Part shown: piece by piece, positions 144-42,641 of the stretch
How the letters are laid out: every line of letters begins with the position of its first letter
How positions within the stretch are numbered: position 1 is the stretch's first letter
The notes under the pieces: model-generated
Seen by the model: the letters and a program-made list of their open reading frames with translations, nothing else
Told to the model about the DNA's origin: nothing
The model's database searches: none
NCBI GenBank assembly: GCA_965371805.1
Contig: CBDUZW010000004.1
Span: 82,954 to 146,953, forward strand
Source: an uncultured bacterium
GTDB taxonomy: Bacteria; Acidobacteriota; Aminicenantia; UBA2199
Direction: 5' to 3'
Length of the DNA: 64,000 nt
Translations under genes and position numbers: made by a program

Positions 144-1943
144 TTGTCTGTATTCTTAACATGGTATATCCTTTTTTATCTTCCAAATAAAGAGTGGATA
201 ATGAGTGCTCCTGGCAAATATATTGGGAATCAAGTTGTTCCAAAAACTATAAGTCAGGCAATTGGAAATTTTTTTGCGTTTAACTGGAAAGAACATTTTT
301 TTAAAATTCCAATTATATGGCTCTTTTCAATTTTATACCTCCCGGTTTTTTACAGAAAATTGATTTTAAAAAAAAGTGATATAACTGATTTAGCATTTAC
401 ATTTTTCTTTCTTTCTCATACTGTCTTCTTTATGTTTATGAACCATAGACCTACAAGGTATCTTCTTCCTGTTATTTTTGCTATGATATTTATGACTCTA
501 CAATTTTTTTCCTATTTATTGAACACAAAAGAAAAACAGGTAGGTCCTTCCATTATTCAAAGGATTCTATTCATTATTCTTGATACGATATGGGTTATTA
601 TAGGATATTATTTTTGTTTCTCTCCATTATTTTTTAAGTATTTTGGCATTTTAAAAGCAAAAAAAATATCTATATTTGTAATTATTTCTGCTATAATATT
701 TTCTGTACTAATAAGTTTTATTAAACCAGGATCTTTTTCAAAAATCAGAGGAATGTTTTTTAAGGAAAAAATTGCTTATATTACAGTGTCTATTCTCTTT
801 GCTCTATCACTTTTTTTTAACCTATATTATTTAAAGAAGTGGGATGATAATAAAACATATACCGTATTGAATATAAATAAAGATTTGAAGAAAAATCTTA
901 ATAATGCCTTTGTTGCAGGATTAACTGCCCCGGTTTCAGTTCTGGAGAATAAACACAGGTCATTATTTCTTTTTCCGGACTTTGTAAACTGGAATAATGA
1001 TGGAACAAAAAACGACACATTTATTAAGTATCCAATCTCTCATGCGTTACTGGCAAGTTTTAATCATGAAATATCTTTGTATTTTCAAAGCTGGCCTAAA
1101 AGAATGGAAAATGCAAAATTGTTAAAAAATTATAATGTGAAAGATCAGTTTCTTCATTTATATTCATTTATACATCCCTATATAGAAAAAATAAAGAGAT
1201 TGGATAACCTTAATTTTGAATTAATAATTAAAAATCCCAACTCTGGTAAAACCGATATATATATAAATGAAATTTATTTAAGTAAAGAAAGTATAAATGA
1301 AGAAATAAAAGGTTCAGATGTTTATATTAAAAAGGGTAAGAAATTTATTACACTTAATAATGGAACATTAAAAGATCATAGTAGTACAATTGTCAACATT
1401 ACTTTAGATGAAAGACGAATTAATAACTCAAAATCGATACTTTTTAATATTGAGACATCATTAGAAAAAGAAGCATTAAGATATGAAGGTGAAAAATTTC
1501 CAGGAAGAACTGGAATTAATAAAAAAGTTAAAAGTAGTTCAGCAAACTTTGTTAGAGTTTTTGATGGCAAAAAAAATAAAACAGGATTTCTGATTCATGG
1601 GCCTCATGTTCCATTTGAATATACACAAGGATTTGTAAAAGCGGAGTTCAGCTTGAGTTTTAATAGAATCAACAACAATATCAGTCCTGTTTGTACAATT
1701 GATCTTTTTGATAAGGATAAAAAACAAAAATTTACAGAGAAAACAATTATCCCCAAAAGGGATAAGACAGGTTTAAATGTTTTTAAAAATTACTCTATTT
1801 ATACACATATTCCTTCAACAAAAAAGATTGAGTTCAGATTAAAAACAGCAGATTTAGGAAATAAGAATGAGAAAGCCAATATTTATATTGACTATGTTGA
1901 TATTACATATTATCAGGGGAAGACTTTTTTATTTGAAAATTAA
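144..1943 (+). CDS. Hypothetical integral membrane protein: N-terminal multi-TM region plus a roughly 350-aa soluble C-terminal domain. The frame is open back to window position 1, so the gene may be 5'-partial or may start at the ATG at 201.
   Basis: Long ORF. Hydrophobic helices over the first ~230 aa, then an Asn/Lys-rich soluble domain. No stop codon upstream in this frame within the window. The given start is TTG. Confidence 0.5.
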   Translation: MSVFLTWYILFYLPNKEWIMSAPGKYIGNQVVPKTISQAIGNFFAFNWKEHFFKIPIIWLFSILYLPVFYRKLILKKSDITDLAFTFFFLSHTVFFMFMNHRPTRYLLPVIFAMIFMTLQFFSYLLNTKEKQVGPSIIQRILFIILDTIWVIIGYYFCFSPLFFKYFGILKAKKISIFVIISAIIFSVLISFIKPGSFSKIRGMFFKEKIAYITVSILFALSLFFNLYYLKKWDDNKTYTVLNINKDLKKNLNNAFVAGLTAPVSVLENKHRSLFLFPDFVNWNNDGTKNDTFIKYPISHALLASFNHEISLYFQSWPKRMENAKLLKNYNVKDQFLHLYSFIHPYIEKIKRLDNLNFELIIKNPNSGKTDIYINEIYLSKESINEEIKGSDVYIKKGKKFITLNNGTLKDHSSTIVNITLDERRINNSKSILFNIETSLEKEALRYEGEKFPGRTGINKKVKSSSANFVRVFDGKKNKTGFLIHGPHVPFEYTQGFVKAEFSLSFNRINNNISPVCTIDLFDKDKKQKFTEKTIIPKRDKTGLNVFKNYSIYTHIPSTKKIEFRLKTADLGNKNEKANIYIDYVDITYYQGKTFLFEN

Positions 1944-4159: not shown

Positions 4160-6232
4160 TTATACCTTGGGAATTAAATTAATATCTACTAATTCAACAT
4201 GAGAATCAAAATCAATTGAAATGAATATACCTTCAAGGTTTTTTTTAAATTTCTTAAAGATATGTTCTATTATTTTTGAATTATTGATTTTTTTTGATAT
4301 TGAATATTTTTTTTTGTAATCCATTATTGAAAAAACAATACTTCCAGTAAAAGGTTCTCGAAGTTTTAGTTGTATTTGTCTGGTTTTTAAATGAAACCAG
4401 GAATACCTACGTTTAATTTTTGTAATAGGAAAATTTTCAATTACTTTTACAATAGTATGCTTTTTGTTTATTTTAATAATTCTGAAATAATCTTTTTGTT
4501 TTCCAATAAACATTTTAAGATCTTTTTTATTTACTTCAAATTTACTGTTCTCCCAATTAAATATTATATAATTGACTGAATAGTTCTCTAATAACCATTT
4601 GATTTTATCATTATTTATAATATTTTTAGAACTATATAATTTTTCATATATAATTGCATTATTTGGAACAGCTCTATATGCTGTCCGGCCATTAATATAA
4701 TAATTTGAATGAAAAAATGAATTTATTGTGTAACGACTATTTCTAATAGAACGTCTATTAAAAGAGTATATAGGTAATTCAAGTATTATTTTATCTTTTT
4801 CCTTTAAAATATTTTTTGTAAATTTTAATTTATCTAAGATAAATCCTTTATTAATATACATATGCTTATAGTTTTCTGCGAAAATAAAAACAAGAATGAT
4901 AAAAAAAAATGTTTTTTTATGTTTTATTTTTTTAAAAATAATTATAAACCCTTCAACAGAAATTAATGTAATTAGCAGAACTGCTAGTATTAAAATCCTA
5001 TGATAAAATCTGAAATTAGCCAATTGTGGAATTATTTTTGTAAAAAATCCATAAATTGAAAAATTAAGACCATTAAATATTAAAGAATATTTATAGTATA
5101 CTAAAATAATAAGTAAACTTAAGGGATAAAACAATTTTAATTCCATTGAGAGAGATTCTCTTTTAAAAATATAACTAAATAACATATAAAAAACAATAAG
5201 TATAAATAACCAATTTGCTAATTGATACATTTTATTTATTTCAAAAATAAATGATAGAAAAAGCAAAAAAGTCAAAATAATCGGAATCAAAAAATATTTA
5301 CTTTTTTTAAAAAGTGGGATAAAAAAAAGAAAAAATATAGTAAATCCTGGGAAAAAAGTTTTAAATGGATCTTTCTCATTTTGAATTCCAATTTTCTTAA
5401 GTAACAATGAACCAGAATTAAAAATTTCTGAAGTAGAGATTAGTGTTTTATAATTATTATTAAAATTTCTTTTTAATCCTGCATCTCCAATTGTTGTAAA
5501 AAAGGGATGATATATAATTATTAATAATAATAAAAAAGGAAGAACGGATATTACTAGTTTTTTAAATTTTTTTATTGATAAGAATTTATACAAAAAGGAC
5601 AATAGAATTATAAGTGGAATCAAAATAGCTGTTGAATAAAACCCATGATAAACACTAAATATACCTTGTAAGAGAATAAATAAACCCGTTTTAATTCCAT
5701 CTTTTATTAGTCCATATTTTAAAAATTTTATAAGAAAATACAAAATATAGGGAATAAAAAAAAAAGAAAAAACATTTAACACTCCAAAATGAGTTTTCTG
5801 AAATGGAAGCAAAAGATATATTATTGAGCCCAAATATGATGCTGCATTAGAATTTGAAGTTTCCTTTATAAGCAAAAAGAAACCAATACTCCCAATATAT
5901 AGTGCAAATAATAAATAAAGAGAATAACAGGAATTTAGATTTAAATTAAAAAGTTTTTTAAAAATAAAGAAGAATAATGACTCTCCATACAGGGGATGAC
6001 CATGAAAAGTAATATAGGACTCTGGATAATAATAATTCAAATGGTATAAAGAGTTAAAGCCATTTGTTAAAAAATTAATATTCCATCCAATAACACTCAT
6101 AATATAATATGAGTCAGGGGATGGATTAAATGGAACCTTTGACTCTAAAGCAGATTTTACTATTGGAAAATAAAGCGATATAACTATAACAAAAATAATT
6201 ATTAATGAGACTTTTTTCATAAAAAAAACCAC
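4160..6232 (-). CDS. Large polytopic membrane protein (690 aa, more than 10 predicted TM helices); possible membrane glycosyltransferase or polymerase-like protein
   Basis: Long ORF dominated by hydrophobic segments, with a periplasmic-type C-terminal domain. No specific motif recognised. Confidence 0.45.
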   Translation of the reverse strand: MVFFMKKVSLIIIFVIVISLYFPIVKSALESKVPFNPSPDSYYIMSVIGWNINFLTNGFNSLYHLNYYYPESYITFHGHPLYGESLFFFIFKKLFNLNLNSCYSLYLLFALYIGSIGFFLLIKETSNSNAASYLGSIIYLLLPFQKTHFGVLNVFSFFFIPYILYFLIKFLKYGLIKDGIKTGLFILLQGIFSVYHGFYSTAILIPLIILLSFLYKFLSIKKFKKLVISVLPFLLLLIIIYHPFFTTIGDAGLKRNFNNNYKTLISTSEIFNSGSLLLKKIGIQNEKDPFKTFFPGFTIFFLFFIPLFKKSKYFLIPIILTFLLFLSFIFEINKMYQLANWLFILIVFYMLFSYIFKRESLSMELKLFYPLSLLIILVYYKYSLIFNGLNFSIYGFFTKIIPQLANFRFYHRILILAVLLITLISVEGFIIIFKKIKHKKTFFFIILVFIFAENYKHMYINKGFILDKLKFTKNILKEKDKIILELPIYSFNRRSIRNSRYTINSFFHSNYYINGRTAYRAVPNNAIIYEKLYSSKNIINNDKIKWLLENYSVNYIIFNWENSKFEVNKKDLKMFIGKQKDYFRIIKINKKHTIVKVIENFPITKIKRRYSWFHLKTRQIQLKLREPFTGSIVFSIMDYKKKYSISKKINNSKIIEHIFKKFKKNLEGIFISIDFDSHVELVDINLIPKV

Positions 6233-6329: not shown

Positions 6330-7183
6330 ATTACTGGTTAGTAGAACAGGGAGTTTCAACCAGCCTCTCTTAGAACGATAGGTGAACCTCTCAGCTCATA
6401 CCACTCCCGCCGTCCAAAGCTCATCCTCCTACCCTAAACCCAAAACACCAATGTGCAAATAATCCCGGCATTGTACTACTAACATTATTTAACCACTTTT
6501 TTAGCCCCTTTGATGTCATGCCTGAATCGCTTATACTTATTACGAATCCATTTCCATAATCTAAAATTTAACTTAAAAAGGAAGGAACTTAAACATCGTT
6601 TATGAAATTATCCATAGTAATTTATCCAACCTTGTACCTTTGGGTTTATCAGTTTCGCAATATCTTCTATACTAAGATCTGTTCTCAAATGTATTTTCAT
6701 TCTCCGTATTTCACTACCCATTTTCTTTATTGCTTCATTACTAGCTCCGGGTAAAAATTCTTTGAATTTTCTCCCCTTAGGTGATTTTGCTGTTCTTTCA
6801 CGAAATGAGTATCCCGGAAATGTGAATTCCGAATTTTCATGTTTAGCTTTACGATTACTATCCTTGCAGTAGATAATCTTTGTCTTTTCCGGATGAAGTT
6901 CCAGTTTGCATTTTTCCAACCTCTTACTGATTTTAGCTAATACAAACACCGCTTGCCTGAAACTTTTGCAATGTACAATTGCATCATCTGCATAACGCTC
7001 AAACGCCAGAGATGGAAACTCTCTTTCCAGCCACTTATTAAATGCATAATGTAGAAAAATATTTACCAAAAAAGGACTATTAACTCCTCCTTGAGGGGTT
7101 CCTTTAGAACGTTCTTCAATATTTCCATTCTTCTTCTGTACAGGTGCTTTCAATGTACATCTTTTGAAGATGATAAAAAGCAA
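6330..7183 (-). mobile_element. Truncated group II intron: C-terminal part of the intron-encoded reverse transcriptase/maturase plus a GC-rich 3' intron RNA segment (domain V/VI region)
   Basis: The ORF at 6608-7183 encodes RT motifs including FERYADDAIVHC (YADD) and the maturase X-domain tail QGWINYYG. The N-terminal RT domains 0-4 are missing. 6330-6600 is locally GC-rich and paired, which is unusual for this genome. Confidence 0.75.
6608..7183 (-). pseudogene. Group II intron reverse transcriptase/maturase, N-terminally truncated fragment (191 aa)
   Basis: YADD motif, thumb/X domain, and C-terminal QGWINYYG. Lacks RT domains 0-4, so it is non-functional. Confidence 0.75.
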
Positions 7184-13522: not shown

Positions 13523-13876
13523 ATGAGTAATTTGAAAGTTATTAAAGAAAAAAAATCGGATACTTTAGTCTTCTCCGAGAAACTTCTTAAAGAAGATATA
13601 AGGGAATTGAAAAAGGAAATCTTAGCTTCTATAGATAGAGCTGAGAAGATAACTATTAAATTTGATGGATTAAAAGAAACAGACATATTTTTTGTTCAAT
13701 TATTATGTGCTGCCCATAAATATGCAGTCAAAAAAAAAAAAAATCTGGAGATCTCGGAAGCTCTTCCTGAACAATTGAAGACTGTTCTTGAAAACTATGG
13801 TTTTTATAGGGAAAAAGGCTGTATTAAAGAGAAAGAAGATGACTGTTTTTGGTTTAAAGAGGTGACAAATGTCTGA
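13523..13876 (+). CDS. Small STAS-like (anti-sigma-antagonist fold) protein preceding cheA
   Basis: 117 aa. ITIKFDGLKETDIFFVQLL resembles the STAS motif DLSxVxFIDSSGL. The stop overlaps the cheA start. Confidence 0.3.
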   Translation: MSNLKVIKEKKSDTLVFSEKLLKEDIRELKKEILASIDRAEKITIKFDGLKETDIFFVQLLCAAHKYAVKKKKNLEISEALPEQLKTVLENYGFYREKGCIKEKEDDCFWFKEVTNV

Positions 13877-16025
13877 TGAAATAGAAGAGTTTGGAGAGAT
13901 ATTCAAAGAAGAAACATATGAATTGTTAATTGAGTTAGAAAATTCACTTATGGAATTGGAAGGTGAACCTGAAAACATAGAGTTGATTGGAAGTATATTT
14001 CGGGCATTACATACTATAAAAGGTTCTGGAGCTATGTTTGGTTTTGAAACGATATCGGCTTTTGCACATCAGGTAGAGAATGTATTCGACCTTGTTAGAG
14101 AAGGATCTATAAAGGTTACAAAAGATTTGATAGGATATACTTTGCAGGCAAAAGATTTTATTCGTGAAATTGTTGAATCTACCGATTTAACTTCTGATCA
14201 GGAGGATATGAAAAACGATATTCTAACTAAATTGAAGGACTATAGTGATAAGAACTCTTCTGATAAGCACAGTATTGAAAAAAAGGTAGATGAGAAAGAG
14301 GGAGAAACAATAGAGCCTGAAAAAACAGATATGCAAAGTCTGCAGGACAATGAATTAGAAATAACTTTCAGGATTAGATTTACTCCTTCAGAAAAAATAC
14401 TTCAAGGAGGGAATGATCCTGCTGCATTAATCTCTGAATTGAGAGAACTAGGAAAAAGCAGTATTGTTGTTCATGTGAATTCAATTCCTGATTTAGATGA
14501 GATTCAACCGGATTATTGCTATATCTACTGGGATATTCTTCTTACAACTAATCAAAGTCTTGATACTATAAAAGATATATTCATATTTCTTGATGAAGAG
14601 TCTAAGGTTCAAATAGATATAATTGATGAAGGTGATGCTGAAGAAGGAGACTATAAGAAACTAGGACATATTCTTGTAGAGAAAGGTGATCTGTCGATTG
14701 AAGAAATGAAGAATGCCGTTTCCAAACAGCCGAAGTTTGGCGAGATTCTGGTTGAAAAAGGAATAGCTGAGCCTGAAAAGATTGTATCAGCCTTAATGGA
14801 ACAGAAACATGTCAGGGAGGTTAGAAAGGAAAGAACTGATAAGACCGTATCGGCTTCTCTCAGAGTGTCTTCTGTAAAAGTTGATAAACTTGTAGATCTG
14901 GTAGGAGAAATGGTCACAGCTCAGGCTAGATTAGCACAGATAAGTATCAATGTTGGTGATAATGAGCTAGTAGGTTTATCAGAAGATATAGAAAGATTAA
15001 TTTGGGAATTGAGAGACAATACAATGGAAATGCGGATGCTGCCTTTTGGCAGTACCTTTGGCCGATTTAGAAGACTGGTCAGGGATCTATCTGAAAATCT
15101 AAATAAGGATATAGAATTGACTACTCTTGGTGGAGAAACTGAACTTGATAAAACGGTAATTGAAAAACTGGGAGATCCACTGACTCATATTATCAGAAAC
15201 TGTCTTGATCACGGAATAGAGGAACCAGATGAAAGGGTAAAAAAAGGCAAACCAAAGCAAGGGACAATACATCTTTCTGCTTATCATTCAGGTGCAAATG
15301 TTATAATACAAATAAGCGATGATGGCGCAGGATTAGATCTTGAAAGGATTGAAAAAAAAGCTATCAGCAAGGGATTAGTGCCTACAGACAGAAAATTATC
15401 AACCAAAGAGATTAGCGGTTTGATATTTGAACCGGGTTTTTCGACAGCACAGGAAGTAACCGATGTTTCAGGCAGGGGTGTTGGCATGGATGTCGTGAAG
15501 AAGAATATAAACCTGCTGCGCGGATTAATTGATGTTGATAGTGAGTCTGGTAAAGGAACTACTATAAAACTTAAAATACCTTTAACATTGGCAATTATTG
15601 ATGGTCTATTGGTTGCGATTGAAAATGAAAAATTTGTTTTACCATTATCAATGGTTGAGGAATGTATAGAAATTAAATATAGTGATATAGAGAATGCAAA
15701 TGGAAGAAATTTTGTAAAAAGAAGAGGTGAGTTGATCCCTTATATTAATCTTAGAGAAGTTTTTAAATTAAAGGATGAAATTCCTCTTTTGCAACAAGTT
15801 GTAATAACCAATATTGATAATGAAAGGATTGGATTTGTGGTTGACACTGTTATTGGAGGTCATCAAACTGTCATAAAATCTTTAGGGTCAATATATAAAG
15901 ACATTGATGGTGTTTCAGGTGCAACAATACTGGGAGATGGTACAATTGCACTTATTCTTGATGCACTTAAAATCATTAATAATGCTGAATTGGATAAGTT
16001 AAATAAAGATAAAAAGACTGGGTAA
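13869..16025 (+). CDS. cheA: Chemotaxis histidine kinase CheA
   Basis: HPt motif ALHTIKGSGAMFGFE, dimerisation and HATPase regions (DDGAGLD, GRGVGMDVV), and a C-terminal CheW-like domain. Confidence 0.9.
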   Translation: MSDEIEEFGEIFKEETYELLIELENSLMELEGEPENIELIGSIFRALHTIKGSGAMFGFETISAFAHQVENVFDLVREGSIKVTKDLIGYTLQAKDFIREIVESTDLTSDQEDMKNDILTKLKDYSDKNSSDKHSIEKKVDEKEGETIEPEKTDMQSLQDNELEITFRIRFTPSEKILQGGNDPAALISELRELGKSSIVVHVNSIPDLDEIQPDYCYIYWDILLTTNQSLDTIKDIFIFLDEESKVQIDIIDEGDAEEGDYKKLGHILVEKGDLSIEEMKNAVSKQPKFGEILVEKGIAEPEKIVSALMEQKHVREVRKERTDKTVSASLRVSSVKVDKLVDLVGEMVTAQARLAQISINVGDNELVGLSEDIERLIWELRDNTMEMRMLPFGSTFGRFRRLVRDLSENLNKDIELTTLGGETELDKTVIEKLGDPLTHIIRNCLDHGIEEPDERVKKGKPKQGTIHLSAYHSGANVIIQISDDGAGLDLERIEKKAISKGLVPTDRKLSTKEISGLIFEPGFSTAQEVTDVSGRGVGMDVVKKNINLLRGLIDVDSESGKGTTIKLKIPLTLAIIDGLLVAIENEKFVLPLSMVEECIEIKYSDIENANGRNFVKRRGELIPYINLREVFKLKDEIPLLQQVVITNIDNERIGFVVDTVIGGHQTVIKSLGSIYKDIDGVSGATILGDGTIALILDALKIINNAELDKLNKDKKTG

Positions 16026-16028
16026 ATT

Positions 16029-16901
16029 ATGGGAACAATATTAGATCCAAATACAATATATAAAGCAAAATTAAGTGAAAAGGATTTTTTAAAACTTCAG
16101 AATATTATTCAAGGTGAATATGGGATAAAAATGCCTTTAACTAAAAAAGATATGCTTGAAGCTCGATTAAGAAAGAGACTTAAAGCTCACTCTTTTGCTA
16201 ATTTCTCACAATATTGTGATTACTTATTTTCAGAAGTAGGCATGAAGGAAGAGTTAATTCATATGCTTGATATGGTCACTACTAATAAAACAGATTTTTT
16301 TAGAGAAGCTGATCATTTTGATTTTCTTATTAAATCTGTTCTTCCCGGAATGATCACCGGTGAAGGGCTTGGAATAAACAAAAAACTTATGATCTGGAGT
16401 GCCGGGTGTTCTACTGGTGAAGAACCATATACTCTAGCAATGGTCCTTAATGAATTTAGAGAAAGGGTCCCAGGGCTTAGTTTTCAATATTTGATTTTAG
16501 CAACTGATCTCTCTTCAAGAGTTCTTGAAAGTGCTCAAAGGGCTGTTTATCATGAGAATAAAATTGTCCCGGTTCCGAAAAATGCTAAAAATAAGTATAT
16601 ATTAAGAAGTAAAGACCCTTCCAAAAAATTAGTTCGGATTATTCCTGAATTAAGATCATTGATAAAATTCAGACGATTGAATTTTCTTGATAGTAATTAT
16701 GGAATGAGAGAGCCCATTGATATAGTCTTCTTTCGAAATGTCCAGATATATTTTGAAAAGGAGACACAACGTTCTATACTTTTAAAAATTTATAATACTA
16801 TGAGGCATGGAGGGTATTTATTTATTGGACATTCTGAAACTTTAAATGGGTTGGATCTCCCGTTTGAGCAAATAATACCAACAGTTTATAGAAAGGTTTA
16901 A
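16029..16901 (+). CDS. cheR: Chemotaxis protein methyltransferase CheR
   Basis: SAM-methyltransferase region IWSAGCSTGEEPYTLAM. 290 aa. Immediately follows cheA. Confidence 0.9.
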   Translation: MGTILDPNTIYKAKLSEKDFLKLQNIIQGEYGIKMPLTKKDMLEARLRKRLKAHSFANFSQYCDYLFSEVGMKEELIHMLDMVTTNKTDFFREADHFDFLIKSVLPGMITGEGLGINKKLMIWSAGCSTGEEPYTLAMVLNEFRERVPGLSFQYLILATDLSSRVLESAQRAVYHENKIVPVPKNAKNKYILRSKDPSKKLVRIIPELRSLIKFRRLNFLDSNYGMREPIDIVFFRNVQIYFEKETQRSILLKIYNTMRHGGYLFIGHSETLNGLDLPFEQIIPTVYRKV

Positions 16902-16920
16902 CTTGAGGAGCTGACTAAGA

Positions 16921-17985
16921 ATGAGAAAAATTAAAGTTTTAATTGTTGATGATTCTGCTAGTGTTCGCCAAACTCTTAATAAAATACTCTCATCTGATCC
17001 TGAAATAGAGGTAGTAGGGACCGCCTTTGACCCGTTTAATGCGGCTGAAAAACTGGAAACTATTGTACCTGATGTAATAACACTTGATATTGAAATGCCT
17101 CGAATGGATGGAGTTACTTTTTTAAAAAAACTAATGAGCCAGTCACCAATTCCAGTTGTAATATGCTCAAGTCTTGCTGAAAGAGGAGCTGAAACAACTT
17201 TAAAGGCAATAGAGTATGGTGCTGTTGAGATAATTGAAAAGCCTAAAATAGGGACAAAAAATTTTTTTGAAGAATCGAAGATCATGATCTGTGATATTAT
17301 AAAAGCTGCATCAAAGGCTAATGTAAAAAAACTCTCTAATCTAAGGAGTTCATACAATAAAAAACTTTCTGCAGATGCAATAATACCAAAATCCAGATCA
17401 GGTGCAATGTTGAAAACTACTGAAAAAATTATTGTAGTAGGTGCTTCAACAGGCGGAACTGAAGCCTTGAGGGTTTTTCTTGAATCGATGCCTTTGGACT
17501 CTCCCGGTATTGTAATCGTTCAGCATATGCCTGAAAATTTTACTAAAGCTTTCGCAAACAGGATCAATGGATTATGTGAAATAACAGTTAAAGAAGCTTC
17601 TGATAATGATACGATCATACCTGGACAAGCACTTATTGCCCCAGGCAATAAACATATGTTGCTGAAAAGAAGTGGAGCAAGATATTATGTTGATATAAAA
17701 AAGGGACCTCTTGTTTCCAGACACAGACCTTCAGTTGATGTTCTTTTTAGATCTGCAGCAAGGTACGCAGGTAAAAATGCTGTAGGGGTTATTATGACCG
17801 GGATGGGAGATGATGGAGCGAAGGGAATGCTTGAAATGATGGAAGCTGGAGCGTATACAATTGCTCAGGATGAAAACAGTTGCGTTGTTTTCGGGATGCC
17901 CCAGGAGGCAATAAAACACGGTGGAGTAAAAAAGATACTTCCATTAAAGAACATTGCTCATGCCGCATTAAGGGAGTGTTTTTAA
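16921..17985 (+). CDS. cheB: Chemotaxis response regulator protein-glutamate methylesterase CheB
   Basis: N-terminal receiver (KVLIVDDS...DIEMPRMDG) plus a C-terminal methylesterase with GASTGG and HMP motifs. Confidence 0.9.
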
Positions 17986-21561: not shown

Positions 21562-21960
21562 ATGGATTTAAGAATAGTTGCTATTGATGATGATAAAAAG
21601 ATAACAGTATTTTTGAAAAAGGAACTTGAAAAATCAGGTAATATAGTTTTTACTGCAAATAATGGTACTGCAGGATTAGAACTTGTTAAAAAAAAAAATC
21701 CGGATCTTGTTATATGTGATATGCTGATCCCTGGAATTCATGGTGCTGAACTAGCTAGGCAGTTAAGGGCTGATCCTCTTCTTACAGATTTAAAAATTAT
21801 TTTGATGACAGCGGTTTATAAAAAAATCAGCTGGTTAGTGGAATTAAAGTCATTGGCTGATGGTTTTCTTGATAAACCCTTTGGAATTCCCCAGGTAACA
21901 GAATTGATTAATAAAGTAATGGTGAAAAATAAAAAAAATAGGAGAGAAGATGGGAAATAA
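21562..21960 (+). CDS. Single-domain response regulator (receiver only)
   Basis: DDD...ICDMLIPGIHG receiver signature. 132 aa. Confidence 0.8.
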   Translation: MDLRIVAIDDDKKITVFLKKELEKSGNIVFTANNGTAGLELVKKKNPDLVICDMLIPGIHGAELARQLRADPLLTDLKIILMTAVYKKISWLVELKSLADGFLDKPFGIPQVTELINKVMVKNKKNRREDGK

Positions 21961-22324
21961 AGTTGTAATAGTAGATGATGATGTAAAAATTGTAATTTTA
22001 CTTGAAAAAGTTCTTGCCAAGCTGGGATTTGAGGTTTTCAGTGCTGGAGATGGGGATAAAGCTCTGGAACTTGTAAAAAAGGAAAAACCTGATTTGTTGA
22101 TTAGCGATATGTTGATCCCTGGCATTCATGGAATTGAACTGTCAAAAATGGTAAAACAGGATCCGGACTTAAAGGATACGATTGTAATTTTAATGACATC
22201 TGTTTATAGTAAACTTGAATATACATCCAAAGATATGACTTCACAAGCGGATGAATTTATAGAAAAACCAATTGATGTAAAAGATATTATTAGTCTGATT
22301 GGCAGATTGAAAGATTGGAGCTGA
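21950..22324 (+). CDS. Single-domain response regulator (receiver only), tandem paralog of the previous gene
   Basis: VVIVDDD...ISDMLIPGIHG. About 45% identical to the upstream receiver. Overlaps it by 11 nt. Confidence 0.8.
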   Translation: MGNKVVIVDDDVKIVILLEKVLAKLGFEVFSAGDGDKALELVKKEKPDLLISDMLIPGIHGIELSKMVKQDPDLKDTIVILMTSVYSKLEYTSKDMTSQADEFIEKPIDVKDIISLIGRLKDWS

Positions 22325-22348: not shown

Positions 22349-24160
22349 ATGAATAAATTAAAAAAAGGTGGAAGCAGTGATGTTGATTCTGTTTACAATC
22401 GAGAATTTGAGATTCTTGAGAAAGCTTTAAAATATCTTGATTCTGATGGTATTCCAAATGAAGAATTTTATGGAGAGTATAAAAACCTCGCAAAGAATTA
22501 TAAAAAATTACTGCGGCAGACTATCAAGATAACTAAAGTTGGAGATAGTAACCAGAGAAAGGTTCTTCAGGCAAATGATAAAATTGAAGAACAAAATAGT
22601 GAACTTGAAAAAGCAAGAAAAGAAGCTGATAGAGCAAATAGTGCAAAAAGTGATTTTCTTGCGAAGATGAGCCATGAGATAAGAACGCCGATGAATGCAG
22701 TTCTTGGAATGACCGAATTGACTCTGTTAACCGATTTAAATGCGGAGCAGCTTGATTATCTGCAAACTGTCAAAAGTGCTGGACAGAACCTTCTCCATAT
22801 CATAAATGATATTTTAGATTTTTCAAAAATTGAAGCGAAACAGTTAACACTTGAAAGTATAGACTTTGACTTGAATGAATTGATAACATCAACTGTAAAA
22901 ATGTTAACTGTAAATGCAGAAAAAAAAGGGTTGAAGCTACTCTCAAAAATAGAAAAAAATGTGCCAATTGTTTTGAGAGGTGATTCGGTTCGTATAAGAC
23001 AGATTATAATTAATCTTATAGGTAATGCAATAAAATTTACATCTGAGGGGAATATTTTAATAGGTGCCGCTCTTGTTGATGAGAAAAATCAGAGAGAGGG
23101 AATATTTAACGTGCTTTTTTCGATAACAGATAAAGGTATTGGAATGAATGAGGAACAACAGGGGAAGATTTTTGAAAGTTTTAGTCAGGCAGATAGTTCC
23201 ACTACAAGAAAATATGGAGGAACCGGATTAGGCCTGGCAATATGTAAACAGCTGTCTGAACTGATGGGTGGAGGCATAAGTGTTGTGAGTGAACCGGGAA
23301 ATGGTAGTACTTTCAGCTTTTCAGTACTACTAAAACAAGGAGATCCCAAAGTTCTGGAAGAGTTTAAAAAAGAAAAAATGGTTGATGTTAAAGATATCAG
23401 CCCATTAAAGATACTTCTTGCCGAAGATAATAAGATGAACATTAAGTTAGCCCTTACCTTTTTAGAGAAGGCAGGACATTCAGTGACAGTTGCATATAAT
23501 GGTATAGAAGCTTTGAATGAATTAAAAATGGGGCGATTTGATGTGATTCTTATGGATGTTGAAATGCCTGGTATGGATGGACTTGAAGCAGCCGCATTAA
23601 TAAGGAAAGGTGAGTGTGGAACTGAAAAAAAATCAATTCCTATCGTTGCGATGACCGCACATTCTCTCCCTGAATATAAAGATAAAGTATTTAAAGCTGG
23701 AATGAATGAGTTTATTACTAAACCTATAGATCTTGCATTGTTAAACAGAACTCTTGCCAAAATTATTCCTGAATATTCAAATGTAGACCTAAAAGTTAAA
23801 ACATCATATATCAAACCGGATTTAGATGAAACTATAAGGTTTAATAAAAAGAAAGCTATTGATAAACTAGGTGATGATCTTGATTTGTTCAAACAATTTT
23901 GTGGGATGTTTGTAGATGAAATACCTGAGATTTCAAAGCAATTAAATATTGTTATTGAAAATAAGGATAGTGAGGAAATCAGAAAAAAAGCACATTATTT
24001 AAAAGGTTCGGCTGCTATGCTTGGATTAGATATTATATGTGAGATTTCAGCAAAGCTCGAAGCTGCCGGGAAAGAGAATAAGTTAGAGGAGACAGGAGAA
24101 TTATTTAAGACACTCTCAAATGAACTTCTGATTTCAGAAAAATTAATTGCAGAATTATAA
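22349..24160 (+). CDS. Cytoplasmic hybrid sensor histidine kinase: N-terminal helical module, HisKA, HATPase, receiver and C-terminal HPt
   Basis: H-box [15 protein letters not shown] (His109). GNAIKFT and GGTGLGLAI ATPase boxes. Receiver [14 protein letters not shown]. HPt motif [12 protein letters not shown]. No TM segment. Confidence 0.85.
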
Positions 24161-24169
24161 AGGAAAAAT

Positions 24170-24931
24170 ATGATCAAATCTAAAAGACTTGAAAATGATA
24201 TGTATGAGAAAGAATCAATTCTTCTTGAAAATGTAGTACAGGGTTCTTTAAATGAAAATCTCTCAAAAGATGAATTACATTCAAAACTTTCTTTTTTAAT
24301 TAAATCTTATGGCAAGTTGTTAAAACTTATTAGAAAAATAACAAAGGTAGGGGATGCTAATCAGAGAAAGCTTGTTCTTGCATATGATGAAATAGAGAAA
24401 CAGAAGAAAGAACTGGACAGTGCTTATTATAAGTTAGACCTATTGGCAAGAAAAGATCCTCTTACTCAACTTTCAAACAGAAGAGATTTTCTTGAAAAAG
24501 TAAATACAGAGATGGTAAGGTTTGAAAGGGATAAAAAAGAATTTGCTTTTGTTCTAAGTGATATAGATGATTTTAAATCTTTTAATGATAAATATGGACA
24601 TGACTGTGGTGACTTTGTTTTAAAAAAAGTTTCTGAAGTATTTTCGAAAACAATCAGAAAACAGGATGCCGTAGGCAGGTGGGGGGGGGAAGAATTTATT
24701 CTGCTACTTCCTGGATCCCTGGCGGATGGTGCAATAAAGATCGCTGAAATAATAAGAAAAGCGATATCTGAACAGACATATGTATATGGAGATCTAAAAC
24801 TATCTATTACTATGACTTTTGGCGTATCTATTTATGATGGATCCGGGGATATCGATAGTTGCATTAAAGAAGCAGATGAGGCTTTATATCTAGGCAAACA
24901 AAAGGGAAAAAATTGTGTTATATGGAGATAA
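24170..24931 (+). CDS. GGDEF diguanylate cyclase with an N-terminal helical stalk (SiaD-like)
   Basis: GGEEF active site (RWGGEEF). Upstream RxxD-type region. No TM segment. The N-terminal 45-70 aa block is shared with the hybrid kinase. Confidence 0.8.
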   Translation: MIKSKRLENDMYEKESILLENVVQGSLNENLSKDELHSKLSFLIKSYGKLLKLIRKITKVGDANQRKLVLAYDEIEKQKKELDSAYYKLDLLARKDPLTQLSNRRDFLEKVNTEMVRFERDKKEFAFVLSDIDDFKSFNDKYGHDCGDFVLKKVSEVFSKTIRKQDAVGRWGGEEFILLLPGSLADGAIKIAEIIRKAISEQTYVYGDLKLSITMTFGVSIYDGSGDIDSCIKEADEALYLGKQKGKNCVIWR

Positions 24932-25493
24932 TATGGATAAACTAAAACTTTTTGAGTATTATAATAAGATGTGTAACCAGAATATTGTTCTGGACTTCCA
25001 GGGAGTTATTTCTCAGGATCTGCTTGTAGGCATGGCTGAGATGATAAAAAACAAATTCACTCAGAAATTTGGAAAAACAACAATGGTAAAAAAAATGTTT
25101 TCCGTATTTATTGAGCTTGCACAGAATATTGCCTACTATTCTTTTGAGAGGGTTGAGCTTGAAAAAGGGAAAGAAAAAGTTGGTGCCGGTATTATTGTTG
25201 TAACTGAACAGGATACATATTATACAATTACATCAGGTAATAAGATAGAGAAAGATAAAGCCATGGCAGTTGTAAAACAATGTGAGCATTTGAATAGATT
25301 AAATGAAGATGAATTGAAAGTTTATTATAAAGGGAAACTGAGAGAACCAAGACCTGAAGGAAAAAAAGGCGGTGGAGTCGGTTTAGTAGAAATTTTGAGA
25401 AAAGCAAAAAGTAAGATAGAGTATAAGGTAACTCCTATCAATGATATAGAATCATTTTTAGTGTTATCTGTGAAAATAGAGGAGATATTATGA
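24915..25493 (+). CDS. SiaB-family protein kinase-like (GHKL/anti-sigma-kinase fold)
   Basis: 192 aa. ISQDLLVGMAEMIK near the N-terminus and the G-box KKGGGVGLVEILRKA near the C-terminus fit the SiaB-family pattern. Overlaps both the DGC gene and the SiaC-like gene. Confidence 0.5.
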   Translation: MLYGDNMDKLKLFEYYNKMCNQNIVLDFQGVISQDLLVGMAEMIKNKFTQKFGKTTMVKKMFSVFIELAQNIAYYSFERVELEKGKEKVGAGIIVVTEQDTYYTITSGNKIEKDKAMAVVKQCEHLNRLNEDELKVYYKGKLREPRPEGKKGGGVGLVEILRKAKSKIEYKVTPINDIESFLVLSVKIEEIL

Positions 25494-25864
25494 AAGATCT
25501 AAAAGTTAAAAAAACAAAATACACACTGGATATTGATTTTAATGGAACAACAGGAGTGCTGGAGATGGCTGGTTCCTCTTATCCTGAGAATGCGATTGAT
25601 TTTTATAAACCAATAATTAATTGGATAGAATCCTTTATTAAAGAAGAAGCTAAACCCATAACTTTGAATTTCAGACTGAATTATCTAAATACTAGCTCGA
25701 CAAAATGTATACTTGATATATTTGAAATTCTTGAAGAATATAACGAAAAGAATGAGGTAATAGTTAATTGGTACTATGAAGAGGATGATGAAGATATTCT
25801 GGAAACTGGTGAAGAAATGGGAGAAGATATGGAAATCTCAATGAACTTCATCCCTATTAAATAG
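25490..25864 (+). CDS. SiaC-like DUF1987 phosphoprotein
   Basis: 124 aa. GSSYPENAIDFY and the LNYLNTSSTK block, with Thr at position 68, match the SiaC/DUF1987 signature including the phospho-acceptor threonine. Confidence 0.6.
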   Translation: MKDLKVKKTKYTLDIDFNGTTGVLEMAGSSYPENAIDFYKPIINWIESFIKEEAKPITLNFRLNYLNTSSTKCILDIFEILEEYNEKNEVIVNWYYEEDDEDILETGEEMGEDMEISMNFIPIK

Positions 25865-38652: not shown

Positions 38653-39933
38653 CTAGTCTGATTTTTCATCACTAATAATGGCAGATAGATTTTTTGAAAT
38701 TTTGGTGATCTTATCCAATTTGTCATTATTAATTTTATTTTTGTCTTCTTCTGTTTTTATGTTTTTTTTCAAATGATCTATTGATGATATAAGGATTTTT
38801 TCTTTCTCATCTTTAGCTTTTTCTATATCTCCGATCTCTTTTTTTATGTTTTTAATTTCTTTTGTTTCTGACTCTAATTGTTTCTCAACTTCCTCAAATT
38901 CTTTTTTTAATGAATCAAATGTAGATTTATTCTGTTCATTTTCCTCTTCTAAGTCTACTTTATCTGATTTTAGGGTATTTATCTCATCCATTAAGCTTGT
39001 TTCCAATATTTTTTTATCTGATTTTATTTGTTCAATATCTGAAGTTAATATACTGACCTTTTCTTTATTCTCATTCTTAATCTTCTCTAATTCACTGTTC
39101 AGATTGCTTAATTCTTCTTCAATGTTTTCATGTCCATCTGTACTCTTTTTTAAATCTTCTTTTAGGTCACTATTTATTATCAGGAGTTCCTTATTTTCCT
39201 TTTTCATGAAACCATTCTGTTTTTCCATGGATAATATCTCTGCATTTAATTCAGAAATCTTTATCTTATGTTTCTCTAAATCTTCTTTATCAGGCTGCTT
39301 TTTGTCTTCAATTTTTTTTTCTTCAGGTTTTTTCTTCACCTTTTTTAATTCAATTTCCTTAGTTTTTATTTCTGAACTATCTGCAAAAGAAAGGTCTATT
39401 TCTCCACTATGGTCCTTTGCATCTTCTACAGTAAATATTCCTTGACTCGATTCGTTATCTTCAAGCAATTCATTATCAAAAATATCCATTTCCTCTATAT
39501 CTTCATAGAGCTCTTCGGCAAAAGGACTTTCGTCTTTGGGTTCCTTTTTATTGCTTGCTTTTACTATTTTCGGCAATATTGAATACTTCTTTAATAGTTC
39601 GTCCAGGGAAATAATGATTTCAGAATCTTTCAAAAATTCATCTGGTGGGTGTAAGAGTTTTTTATAATCTTCAATCTCGTTTTTTGTTGTCTCAGAGACT
39701 ACAATGATTACAATTGAATCATTTGTTGATTTACATACTTTTAGTAACTCATGTGCAACAAAAATATTCAAGTCTTGTACTTCAAGATCAAGAATAACAA
39801 GTGAGGGCTTGTTTTTGTCTAAATAGGTAACAGCTTCTTCACTTGATTTAATAGTTTTCTCTTTTCCATTACATATAGGGTCTATGACTTTAATAATTTC
39901 TTCTCTTTCACTAATAACTAATATATTGCTCAT
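38653..39933 (-). CDS. Receiver-domain protein with a roughly 300-aa acidic Glu/Lys-rich coiled-coil tail
   Basis: Start re-assigned to MSNILVIS (39933), 2 nt after the polA stop. Receiver Asp in SLVILDLEV. The remainder is a low-complexity charged coiled coil (EELSNLNSELEKIKNENKEK...). Confidence 0.5.
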   Translation of the reverse strand: MSNILVISEREEIIKVIDPICNGKEKTIKSSEEAVTYLDKNKPSLVILDLEVQDLNIFVAHELLKVCKSTNDSIVIIVVSETTKNEIEDYKKLLHPPDEFLKDSEIIISLDELLKKYSILPKIVKASNKKEPKDESPFAEELYEDIEEMDIFDNELLEDNESSQGIFTVEDAKDHSGEIDLSFADSSEIKTKEIELKKVKKKPEEKKIEDKKQPDKEDLEKHKIKISELNAEILSMEKQNGFMKKENKELLIINSDLKEDLKKSTDGHENIEEELSNLNSELEKIKNENKEKVSILTSDIEQIKSDKKILETSLMDEINTLKSDKVDLEEENEQNKSTFDSLKKEFEEVEKQLESETKEIKNIKKEIGDIEKAKDEKEKILISSIDHLKKNIKTEEDKNKINNDKLDKITKISKNLSAIISDEKSD

Positions 39934-39935
39934 AT

Positions 39936-42641
39936 TTACTCCATTAACTCTGCCATTTCTCCCCAATTCTTACCTTTTTTAAGAGAAATATTTAGAGGAA
40001 CATCTATTGCGGTGGCATTTTTCATTTCATTGGATACTATTTTTATTAAATCTGTTTCTTCATCTAAAGGATATTCAAATATTATTTCATCATGAACTGA
40101 GAGTAACATTTTAGAATCCATATTCTTAATTTTCTTATGAATATTTATCATTGCCATTTTTATAATCTCAGCAGCTGAACCCTGTATAATTGTATTCACA
40201 GACATTCTTTTTCCATTTTCTTTGACACTCTGGATTGAACTTTGAAGTTCGGGTAATTCTCTTTTTCTTCCAGCCATAGTTATAACAAAGCCATCTTTTT
40301 CTGCATTCTCAATTGTTTGGTCAATATAATCTTTTACTCCGGAATATTTCTCAAAATATGTTTCAATAAACTCTTTTGCCTCTTTAAAACTGACACCTAG
40401 TTCTTTCGATAGAGAATAGGCACCGGAACCGTATATAATGGAGAAATTAATGATTTTCGCTCTTTTTCTTTTAAGCTGATTGTCCATAAATAAATCTCTG
40501 CCAAAAACCAGATTCGCTGTTTGAGAATGAATATCCAGGTTGTTTTTAAACGCATTTTTCAAATTTTTATCCTTGGAAAAATGCGCCATTACCCTTAACT
40601 CTATCTGAGAATAATCTGCTGCTAAAAGATACTTGTTTTTGTCACTAATAAATAACTTTCTTATATTAATGTCATCTTTCTCAAATACAGGAATATTCTG
40701 TAAATTGGGATTGGATGATGATAGTCTACCAGTTGCAGTTACTGTCTGGTTAAAAGATGTATGTATTCTAGCTGATGGGGAGATATGTTCTTTTAGTCCA
40801 ATCAGGTATGTTGAGTAGAGTTTTTTCCATCCCCTGTATTTTATTAAATTCTCTACAATAGGAATGTTTTTATATTCAGAAAGAACCTCAATGTCTGTTG
40901 AATAACTCTTGGTTTTTTTGGTTTTTTTGGATATGGGAAGTTTCATTTTTTCAAACAATAATTCTCCAAGTTGTTTAGATGAATTAATATTAAGTTCATA
41001 TCCAGCCTGTTTAATAATTGTTCTTTCTATTTTTGATAATTTTTGTTCCAGTTGATCGATTGAGTTCTGTAAATTATCAACATCAACTTTAATTCCATTA
41101 TATTCCATATCCATAAGTACAGGGATTAGTGGTATTTCGATTGTATTATACAGTTTATTTAAGCCTCTCTCATCTAGAAGCGGCGTAAAGACTTCTACTA
41201 GTTTTATAGATGTATTGGAATCGTCAATGCAGTATTTCCCAACTGTTTCAATATCTATTGATTCTAAGGGTTTTGCTTCTTTTCCGGTTCCAATAATTTT
41301 TTCAAAGGTGTCCTGGCTTATGTTTAAATATTCAAATGTAAGGTCCTTTAATTTATGGGATCGTCTATTAGGAAATATCAGTCCTGAAGCAATCATTGCA
41401 TCTTCTGAAACTCCATTAACCTTGATATCAATGCTTTTTAAAAAGAGAATGTCAAATTTCAGGTTAAAACCCATTTTCTTTATTTCACTATTTTCAAAAA
41501 TAGGTGTTAAGATTGATCTAACATCTTCAAATGTAAATAAAACATCCTTTTTATTCATTTCTGGAAATTTTATCGGGATATAGTATCCGCAGTCTTGAAA
41601 GGAGATGGATATTCCTACTATCTCAGAATTATAAAATGATAAACCTGTTGTCTCCAGATCAAATGCAAAAAACCCTCTATCTGTTATTTCTTTTTTTAGA
41701 TTGAGTAATTGATCTTTAGACTTAATAATACAATATTTAACATTGTTTGCCTCTCCCTGATCTTTTAAAATTTCATCTATTTTACTTAACAGAGTCCGGA
41801 ATGAATATTTTTTGTAAAATAATGCCAATTCCTTCGAAACAATATGTTTTATATCTCCTTTTTTAAATGTAAAATTATCTGGTGCTTTTGCATCTAATAA
41901 TATTAGTCTTCTTGATAGGTCAATCTCTGATCTGCTGGCCTCTAATTTTTTTTTGAACTTATCTTCAATAGTGTCTATATTCTCAAAGATAGATTTAATT
42001 GAGCTGTACTTGTCAATCAATTTTTTTGCTGTCTTTTCTCCGATCCCTTTTGCACCAGGGATATTGTCAGATGAATCTCCCATTAAAGCCAGATAATCTA
42101 CTATCTGATCCGGATATAGTCCATAATGTTCTTTTATATCCTCAGTTCCCAGTTTTTTCTTTAATTTAGGGTGAAATATTGTTGTGTCTTCATCGACAAG
42201 TTGAAACATATCTTTGTCAGCAGTAAAAATTATGACTTCATCTTTGCTTTTTTCTGCTTCCTTTTTTAAAAAATAGATGATGTCATCACCTTCATAGGAA
42301 GGTATTTCAATTGTATCAATCTGTTTTAATTTCAAATATTCTTTTATCAGGGGAATCTGGAGTACTAATTCCTCTGGAGGTTCTTTTCTATTTCCCTTAT
42401 ACTCAGGATACATATCATGTCTAAATGTTTTTCCTTTTGAGTCCAGAGCAACTATAAGGTAGTCAGGATTTAGTTCTTTGAGAAGATAATCAATGCGGGC
42501 TATGAAACCATATAATGCACCTGTAGCTGTTCCATTTGCGGACCTCATATTTCCAAAAGCATAAAAGGAACTGAATATAAGATACATTCCATCAATTAAT
42601 AATATTTTTTTTTTTTTTACTTCTCCAAAAAGGTGTGACAT
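39936..42641 (-). CDS. polA: DNA polymerase I
   Basis: 901 aa with 5'-3' exonuclease, 3'-5' exonuclease-like and polymerase domains. Motif A DYSQIELR and motif B/C region RRxAKxINFxIIYG, VHDE. Confidence 0.95.
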   Translation of the reverse strand: MSHLFGEVKKKKILLIDGMYLIFSSFYAFGNMRSANGTATGALYGFIARIDYLLKELNPDYLIVALDSKGKTFRHDMYPEYKGNRKEPPEELVLQIPLIKEYLKLKQIDTIEIPSYEGDDIIYFLKKEAEKSKDEVIIFTADKDMFQLVDEDTTIFHPKLKKKLGTEDIKEHYGLYPDQIVDYLALMGDSSDNIPGAKGIGEKTAKKLIDKYSSIKSIFENIDTIEDKFKKKLEASRSEIDLSRRLILLDAKAPDNFTFKKGDIKHIVSKELALFYKKYSFRTLLSKIDEILKDQGEANNVKYCIIKSKDQLLNLKKEITDRGFFAFDLETTGLSFYNSEIVGISISFQDCGYYIPIKFPEMNKKDVLFTFEDVRSILTPIFENSEIKKMGFNLKFDILFLKSIDIKVNGVSEDAMIASGLIFPNRRSHKLKDLTFEYLNISQDTFEKIIGTGKEAKPLESIDIETVGKYCIDDSNTSIKLVEVFTPLLDERGLNKLYNTIEIPLIPVLMDMEYNGIKVDVDNLQNSIDQLEQKLSKIERTIIKQAGYELNINSSKQLGELLFEKMKLPISKKTKKTKSYSTDIEVLSEYKNIPIVENLIKYRGWKKLYSTYLIGLKEHISPSARIHTSFNQTVTATGRLSSSNPNLQNIPVFEKDDINIRKLFISDKNKYLLAADYSQIELRVMAHFSKDKNLKNAFKNNLDIHSQTANLVFGRDLFMDNQLKRKRAKIINFSIIYGSGAYSLSKELGVSFKEAKEFIETYFEKYSGVKDYIDQTIENAEKDGFVITMAGRKRELPELQSSIQSVKENGKRMSVNTIIQGSAAEIIKMAMINIHKKIKNMDSKMLLSVHDEIIFEYPLDEETDLIKIVSNEMKNATAIDVPLNISLKKGKNWGEMAELME

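Follow-up and report, generated by a model that had tools for sequence, protein, structure and literature searches.

Can a single phosphorylatable switch protein serve two different output enzymes through one and the same docking site? This question is raised by an operon in the window analysed here, a 64,000-nucleotide (nt; 64-kb) stretch of an uncultured bacterium of the Aminicenantia (Acidobacteriota; contig CBDUZW010000004.1), in which a tightly packed set of plus-strand genes encodes two response regulators, a hybrid histidine kinase, a GGDEF diguanylate cyclase, a SiaB-family kinase and a SiaC-family phosphoprotein (Table 1). In the Pseudomonas aeruginosa SiaABCD system, SiaA is a PP2C phosphatase, SiaB a kinase, SiaC a DUF1987 phosphoprotein and SiaD a diguanylate cyclase, with structures 6KKP and 7E6G. 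An earlier reading made from the letters of the window alone (the sequence-only reading) had noticed that the hybrid kinase and the cyclase share an N-terminal block, and had proposed this block as a common docking site for the SiaC-like protein. The proposal gains support from a motif match to SiaD and from linkage to siaB and siaC: the shared N-terminus is a portable stalk module that we consider likely to be a docking site for unphosphorylated SiaC, acting on both the kinase and the cyclase, so that two signalling pathways are probably under the control of a single threonine phospho-switch.

The shared block was found at residues 47-75 of the kinase, as the sequence-only reading had given it, and in the cyclase it is likewise present, where it extends over residues 45-71 and not 45-70. 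With 17/27 aligned residues identical (63%), the earlier estimate of about 65% was close. The rest of the two N-terminal regions had been described as unrelated; this is not the case, because the BLASTP alignment reaches far past the block (kinase 15-111 vs cyclase 11-115, ~105 residues, 36% identity, E=2e-16), making the whole N-terminus of ~95 residues homologous, and residues E19, L23, L47 and Y51 are conserved family-wide beside the motif. When the six-frame translation of the window was searched for KITKVGDxNQRK with up to four substitutions, there were exactly two occurrences, and a hidden Markov model (HMM) of the family matched the open reading frames (ORFs) of the kinase and cyclase only, with one domain each. 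The motif is therefore not the generic heptad of many unrelated proteins that the sequence-only reading had allowed for.

Such a likeness could also be a by-product of recent local duplication, gene conversion or a low-complexity coiled coil, with no specific function. The genes are adjacent, the region is helical and rich in Lys, Leu and Glu, and whole-PDB profile searches with N-terminal alignments of 4 and 9 sequences yielded designed coiled coils and nothing else, with marginal E-values. At the DNA level, however, the block is 63% identical, and the same codon is used at only 7/17 identical residues, which points to old paralogues maintained by selection on the protein; on these figures the block did not arise by recent duplication or by gene conversion. 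The kinase and cyclase copies are also each kept as separate orthologous lineages in other metagenome-assembled genomes (MAGs), and the module was recovered at the extreme N-terminus of 600 representatives (E<=1e-3), while the window has just two occurrences of the motif. Together these observations effectively refute a by-product origin.

The connection to SiaC comes from comparison with P. aeruginosa SiaD, which has two SiaC-binding motifs known from the SiaC-SiaD crystal structure and from S50A/Q54A and S82A/Q86A mutants (PMC8457831). The SiaD stalk sequence (PDB 7E6G) was obtained by a chimeric query and then compared directly. The SiaD stretch YHKQLRRLEKVARISDRYQ aligns with its 19-residue counterpart in the kinase block, and the proximal (YHKQLRRLEKVARISDRYQQ) and distal (LEQLVRLERIARISDGFQS) SiaD motifs were compared with the counterpart in the window cyclase (YGKLLKLIRKITKVGDANQR), with the kinase aligned likewise. 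Both window proteins keep the SiaD contact residues K77, V78, R80, I81, D83 and Q86 or have conservative replacements for them, and members of the family from Cloacimonetes read KVTKISDKYQ, intermediate between the SiaD and window forms of the motif. The family HMM scored 19.5 bits against the proximal SiaD motif (E=4e-8, for a single pre-specified target). When the isolated kinase N-terminus, which contains no GGDEF domain, was compared with 18,950 NCBIfam models, the sole match (E=0.02) was to the stalk part of NF038266 ("biofilm regulation diguanylate cyclase SiaD"), and the same model was the only or top match for other modules without GGDEF, from a CxxC protein (E=0.0011) and a small kinase (E=0.00085), the module matches falling at profile positions 53-104. 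For the complete cyclase NF038266 is the best NCBIfam match as well, starting from residue 43 (169.6 bits, below the cut-off of 290), and the best PDB fold match of the cyclase model is SiaD itself (7e6g_A, full length, 248 columns). The similarity to SiaD is short and modest, weak at database scale, and rests on convergent lines and not on one strong score; judged from these sequence comparisons, the motif is homologous to the SiaC-binding site of SiaD.

On the other side of the predicted interface, the window SiaC matches P. aeruginosa SiaC (PDB 6KKO/7E6G) with E=2.6e-22, the YLNTSS segment (65-70) is conserved, and the interface residues Y31, Y65, N67, T68, S69, E110 and D114 are kept, of which the acidic helix residues E110 and D114 pair with SiaD R80 and K77 in the SiaC-SiaD crystal structure (PMC8457831). 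The Arg that partners SiaD D91 in P. aeruginosa SiaC (R103) is replaced by Asp throughout the SiaC proteins of this family, and the stalks of the family have lost D91 and gained an invariant Lys one turn earlier, a pattern that would fit an exchange of charges between the two proteins. Covariation of SiaC with G-type vs S-type stalks follows no strict rule, because one locus (L024) has both stalk types with a single SiaC, and the stalk cores within one locus are nearly identical.

The positions of the motif in the predicted structures were also informative. In the AlphaFold2 model of the cyclase (mean predicted local distance difference test score (pLDDT) 89.6) a helix at residues 2-26 and a loop are followed by one helix (33-93) that continues into the GGDEF domain, and in that of kinase residues 1-345 (mean pLDDT 87.4) a helix at 17-31 and a loop are followed by one helix (37-126) that passes through the motif and H109, with pLDDT values of 92-96 over residues 61-90. 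The sequence-only reading had placed the block immediately before a coiled coil; the models put it inside one continuous helix leading into the catalytic domain. A helix-turn-helix hairpin at KITKVGD, prompted by matches to designed antiparallel coiled coils, was discarded for the same reason, as the helix is continuous in both models. The spacing between the module and the catalytic domains keeps strictly to a heptad register: counted from the motif Asp, the DxLT of GGDEF domains follows after 20, 27, 34, 41, 48 or 62 residues in 23/24 members, and the H-box His after 29, 36, 43, 50, 57 or 64 residues in 29/32 kinases. In the window kinase the invariant motif Asp (D66) lies 43 residues before H109, the modal heptad class, and in the cyclase the spacing from D62 to the D of DPLT is 34 residues, again the modal class and equal to 20 + 14, with the proximal SiaD motif at 20, so the cyclase motif and the proximal SiaD motif share the same heptad register. 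Kinase G65 (SiaD S82) occupies a core 'a' position and Q69 (SiaD Q86) an 'e' position, which matches the published insertion of SiaC T68 between two stalk helices.

Alternatively, the module could be a homo- or hetero-oligomerisation or scaffold element that does not bind SiaC and instead, for example, forms mixed kinase-cyclase coiled coils or binds SiaB, its likeness to SiaD then reflecting common stalk descent. The near-identical stalk cores within a locus would equally favour heteromeric coiled coils, the SiaD N-terminus drives pentamer formation without SiaC (PMC8457831), and several SiaC-contact residues are not conserved. Hetero-oligomerisation is not a general role, however, because many loci (such as L035, L036, L028 and L006) have a single module-bearing protein. 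The best-conserved positions are the SiaC-contacting K, V/I, R/K, I/V, D and Q, beyond the hydrophobic a/d core, the SiaC interface residues are conserved too, and the Gly or Ser at core position 'a' weakens a coiled coil but fits insertion of the T68 loop (PMC8457831). We therefore regard a scaffold without SiaC binding as improbable, and continue with the module as a SiaC docking site.

The module, defined as ~90 residues at the extreme N-terminus containing Y-x-K-L-L-x4-K-[IV]-T-[KR]-[IV]-[GS]-D-x-x-Q-x-K-L, is represented far beyond this locus. The sequence-only reading had suggested looking for the motif on other output domains, and the module was indeed found on many enzyme classes: a profile search of 1.84 billion representatives returned 600 cluster representatives at E<=1e-3, with 116 at E<=1e-10, and the matches are almost all at residues 1-95. 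Pfam scans of the top 146 representatives showed HATPase_c (45), HisKA (43), GGDEF (28), REC (11), SpoIIE (PP2C; 10), GAF (8), Guanylate_cyc (7), Hpt (6), Pkinase (3), HD_5 (3), MFS_1 (2), DUF6272 (1) and HTH_18 (1) domains, and ~11 further members are small CxxC proteins. The module HMM run over the 1,471 ORFs of all retrieved DNA matched nothing beyond module proteins. The small CxxC proteins (P0006-P0009; L006 4075-4545, L008 1680-2141, L023 1029-1520 and L024 432-881) are ~155 amino acids (aa) long, are encoded directly 3' of siaB-siaC, and consist of the stalk module and a C-terminal segment of ~55 residues with two CxxC pairs (IPICxxCKKVRDDKGYWNQVEQYISKHSEAKFSHAICPDC), for which there is no Pfam or NCBIfam family. 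Tandem kinases were seen in L026 (183-2222 and 2630-4402) and L027 (274-2295), where a hybrid module-histidine kinase-REC protein with a C-terminal AraC-type HTH stands beside a module-less histidine kinase-REC-HTH protein; siaB and siaC are not present on these short contigs.

The genomic surroundings of the module link it to SiaB and SiaC. Through a word-indexed search and two contig scans, the operon was also recovered from metagenomes and from Aminicenantes/Acidobacteriota MAGs, and the module adjoins siaB-siaC in 17/19 lineages with adequate flanks, a sample biased by the retrieval of loci by motif or their selection for output diversity. Modules linked to siaB-siaC carry histidine kinase, GGDEF, adenylate/guanylate cyclase, Ser/Thr kinase, MFS or CxxC outputs, in gene orders such as REC-PAS-GAF-PP2C / SiaB / SiaC / module-CxxC, PP2C / SiaB / SiaC / module-Ser/Thr kinase, SiaC / SiaB / module-GAF-cyclase, CHASE8-HAMP-PP2C / SiaB / SiaC / module-cyclase, and CHASE8-HAMP-PP2C / SiaB / SiaC / module-MFS / module-cyclase. 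In L036/L037 the order is response regulator / module-hybrid kinase / SiaB / SiaC, without a cyclase, leaving the kinase as the sole module-bearing partner. A third module protein is encoded in several relatives, a histidine kinase of ~315-335 aa without REC or Hpt domains and convergent on siaC (Table 1), and no such third module-bearing kinase gene was found downstream of siaC in the window. In a syntenic metagenome contig (L001 10001-13199) the kinase is split into three ORFs and there are internal deletions in the cyclase and in SiaC, the latter lacking the NTSS...EILEE segment that includes T68, through either an assembly error or decay of this copy.

The distribution of the SiaA-like phosphatase raises the question of which way the signal runs. 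A PP2C HMM found a SiaA-like gene 5' of siaB in all non-kinase loci with upstream sequence (L006-8, L028-30, L035, L038/39), and none in any response regulator-kinase locus carrying siaB-siaC (L001 over 20 kb, L002, L005, L010, L018, L020, L036 and the window). In addition, L015 (4596-6671) contains an in-frame module-HisKA-HATPase_c-REC-DUF6272 fusion, in which SiaB replaces Hpt, followed by siaC; this looks like a Rosetta-stone-like link of the kinase to the SiaB/SiaC switch, with an assembly artefact possible. Both observations would suit a kinase that is mainly an input, its His-Asp relay replacing SiaA and setting SiaB activity, with the stalk only feeding back or titrating SiaC from the cyclase; HptB-HsbR-HsbA, cited in PMC7647112, provides a precedent, in which a REC domain controls a partner-switch kinase/phosphatase. 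Against such a role, a histidine kinase cannot remove a Thr phosphate, so a phosphatase would still be needed, and with no sensor beyond the SiaC-type stalk a pure input would have nothing to sense. A role mainly as input thus appears rather unlikely, and as a feedback loop it is compatible with SiaC docking on both proteins and not exclusive of it. A response regulator-kinase pair is found in L014 too, together with a large convergent PP2C gene and without siaB-siaC within the flanks.

Several observations weigh against docking of SiaC on the window stalks. SiaD S82, which hydrogen-bonds SiaC T68, is replaced by Gly in both window proteins, and the SiaD contacts R74, R84, Y85, M88, R90 and D91 are not conserved in their stalks. 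There is one motif per window stalk vs two in SiaD (giving four SiaC per SiaD dimer), with nothing motif-like 32 residues upstream. The whole-PDB profile searches did not retrieve SiaD (7E6G). Besides the bias of the linkage sample, two well-flanked loci with module proteins (L014 and L031) have no siaB-siaC nearby. Finally, a Pfam scan of 36/59 candidate window ORFs (>=100 aa) detected no SpoIIE/PP2C domain, and the local PP2C HMM, run over every window ORF of >=60 aa, found no SiaA-like gene either, although one may be encoded outside the window.

A mechanism that accommodates these data would start with the module as a short helix, a loop and a long helix unbroken into the output domain, the stalks of two protomers forming a parallel coiled coil as in P. 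aeruginosa SiaC-SiaD. SiaC would bind K-[IV]-T-[KR]-[IV]-[GS]-D-x-x-Q, its T68 loop inserting at the conserved Gln and at the small 'a' residue, which is G65 in the kinase and G61 in the cyclase. With one motif per stalk, unphosphorylated SiaC would clamp both dimeric stalks with two SiaC per dimer (2:2), and phosphorylation of T68 by SiaB would release it. Binding to the SiaD-like cyclase would stabilise the active dimer and lead to synthesis of cyclic di-GMP (c-di-GMP), as for SiaD. For the hybrid kinase the stalk is the only possible input region, and SiaC may shift autophosphorylation in either direction, after which phosphate would pass from H109 to D403 to H549 and on to the two single-domain response regulators encoded upstream. 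The absence of PP2C from response regulator-kinase loci and the L015 kinase-SiaB fusion suggest that the kinase and response regulators probably feed back on SiaB, in place of the missing SiaA.

The operon structure was deduced from gene overlaps and gaps of 1-24 nt; promoter and terminator scans of the AT-rich window performed no better than on shuffled sequence. The gene for response regulator 1, which has a counterpart in some related loci (L002, L009, L018), overlaps that of response regulator 2 by 11 nt, and a homologue of the latter stands 5' of the module-bearing hybrid kinase in most related loci with upstream sequence. In the kinase, Pfam domains HisKA (99-163), HATPase_c (211-328), REC (355-466) and Hpt (517-593) were all above cut-offs, with the phosphorelay residues H109 (HisKA), D403 (REC) and H549 (Hpt) each in a canonical motif. 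It has no transmembrane segment (maximum KD19 1.19), and N-terminal to HisKA there is only the 98-residue stalk module, with no PAS, GAF, HAMP or transmembrane element; the cyclase likewise has no sensor domain or membrane segment beside the module. The cyclase has a GGEEF active site (172-176) and an RKQD I-site (163-166). The mechanically called siaB ORF begins at a GTG at 24915, overlapping the cyclase gene, and the alternative ATG at 24933 is the likelier start because homologues begin at the MDKLKLFEYY methionine; siaB then starts 1-2 nt past the cyclase stop codon and overlaps siaC by 4 nt. The SiaB protein scored 169.3 bits against NCBIfam NF038262 (SiaB_fam_kinase, cut-off 85). For SiaC, in which codon T68 is at 25691-25693, the Pfam score was 144 bits (cut-off 24.5) and the NCBIfam equivalog score 116.9, below 150, making it a family member and not an equivalog.

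Table 1. Positions of the operon genes and stalk modules in the window, and of a third module-bearing kinase in related loci (locus coordinates)
Feature	Position	Strand	Evidence
Response regulator 1, REC only, 132 aa	21562..21960	+	Pfam Response_reg E=2e-21
Response regulator 2, REC only, 124 aa, directly 5' of kinase	21950..22324	+	Pfam Response_reg E=6e-24
Hybrid histidine kinase, cytoplasmic, 603 aa	22349..24160	+	Pfam HisKA, HATPase_c, REC, Hpt
Kinase stalk module, aa 1-98	22349..22642	+	Family HMM 99.9 bits
Kinase motif core, aa 60-71, counterpart of SiaD K77-M88	22526..22561	+	Motif scan, SiaD stalk alignment
SiaD-like diguanylate cyclase, module + GGDEF, 253 aa	24170..24931	+	Pfam GGDEF E=8.5e-44
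Cyclase stalk module, aa 1-93	24170..24448	+	Family HMM 82.4 bits
Cyclase motif core KITKVGDANQRK, aa 56-67	24335..24370	+	Motif scan, SiaD stalk alignment
SiaB-family protein kinase (DUF6272)	24933..25493	+	Pfam DUF6272 (PF19788) E=5e-37
SiaC-family regulatory phosphoprotein (DUF1987, PF09345)	25490..25864	+	Pfam SiaC E=1.6e-42
Third module-bearing kinase	L005 9431-10372, L010 9694-10704, L018 9731-10705, L020 3842-4828	-	Motif KITRIGD[MR][NHQ][YQ]

Compared with known systems, the locus is a SiaBC(D)-type partner switch with a second, predicted target class. As in SiaABCD, it has members of the SiaB and SiaC families with a conserved T68 loop, the cyclase stalk carries K-[VI]-x-[RK]-[IV]-[SG]-D-x-x-Q before GGDEF, the N-terminal helix folds beside the stalk, and SiaD is the best NCBIfam and PDB match. 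It differs from SiaABCD, where siaA accompanies siaBCD, in having no SiaA in the operon or the 64 kb, and also in the single motif per stalk, the Gly at the S82 position, the cyclase and SiaC scores below the NCBIfam equivalog cut-offs, and the addition of a module-bearing hybrid kinase and two single-domain response regulators. The HptB-HsbR-HsbA-HsbD system of P. aeruginosa and the BgrSTUWV-BgrR system of Sinorhizobium meliloti resemble it in using a phosphorylatable STAS-like antagonist to bind and activate a cyclase, and in joining a His-Asp relay to a Ser/Thr partner switch via a REC domain (as described in PMC7647112 and PMC8457831). In those systems the relay feeds into the switch, a canonical STAS protein is the antagonist and no kinase is known to carry a shared docking module, whereas the window kinase itself bears the predicted docking motif of the antagonist. 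Similar to the signalling-helix linkers of PadC, DgcZ and GCN4-WspR, the module forms a continuous helix into the catalytic domain and varies in length by whole heptads, and 3i5c, 5llw and 6ttr, coiled-coil GGDEF structures, are likewise among the matches of the cyclase fold search; unlike such linkers, which transmit from an attached sensor, the window helix has no sensor and displays a conserved surface motif that a separate protein would bind. Small proteins that bind histidine kinases and change their autophosphorylation include Sda, KipI and FixT, which are inhibitors acting on DHp or catalytic domains and not phospho-switch proteins, and to our knowledge none of them uses a portable N-terminal stalk common to other enzyme classes.

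Elsewhere in the window, a chemotaxis cluster on the plus strand (13523-17985) lies ~3.6 kb 5' of the operon, an arrangement also present in L001, and comprises a 117-aa ORF, CheA (13869-16025), a 290-aa CheR and a 354-aa CheB-type protein (REC + methylesterase), the CheR and CheB-type assignments being made by synteny with L001. The cluster and the operon are separated by a minus-strand block with IF-2B/MtnA-like, OmpA-like and TPR genes. A 191-aa ORF at 6608-7183 (-) covers the C-terminal portion of a reverse transcriptase domain (RVT_1 profile positions 111-204) together with the beginning of a group II intron maturase domain, and is probably a truncated group II intron ORF. Large ORFs (437-690 aa) without a Pfam family at E<=1e-5 are located at 144-1943 (+), 4160-6232 (-), 38653-39966 (-) and 60764-62152 (+). 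Two acetate/butyrate-kinase-like paralogues, with a phosphotransacetylase/butyryltransferase gene beside the first, were found at 52990-54090, 54087-54992 and 57795-58859, and the matches of both kinase-like paralogues are limited to the C-terminal half of the Acetokinase profile.

Proteins of the SiaC family (DUF1987) are widespread, and the sole SiaC target known to us is SiaD in P. aeruginosa. The sequence-only reading was not aware of an earlier description of the present wiring, and our search of the open-access literature agrees with this, returning papers on P. aeruginosa SiaABCD and no description of a kinase and a cyclase sharing a SiaC docking module. DUF1987 proteins have been suggested to modulate adjacent proteins (PMC8457831), and the module constitutes a sequence-level rule that could predict SiaC targets and that points out loci with two or three predicted targets for one switch. 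The module region has no model in Pfam or NCBIfam, and one would be worth adding to both. More tentatively, with the odds in our view somewhat against it, the stalk could be a universal SiaB/SiaC adaptor, so that any enzyme or transporter acquiring it in the correct heptad register would come under SiaC control; in this organism one SiaC would drive both c-di-GMP synthesis and a His-Asp relay, with the kinase and response regulators feeding back on SiaB in place of SiaA in a self-contained loop that couples three signalling chemistries; if so, the classes served would be histidine kinases, GGDEF and class III cyclases, Ser/Thr kinases, PP2C, HD_5, MFS and CxxC proteins. The module suggests that a threonine-phosphorylation partner switch may directly gate a histidine kinase and other enzymes, and also that grafting of a stalk in heptad register may be a route by which signalling proteins could be rewired.

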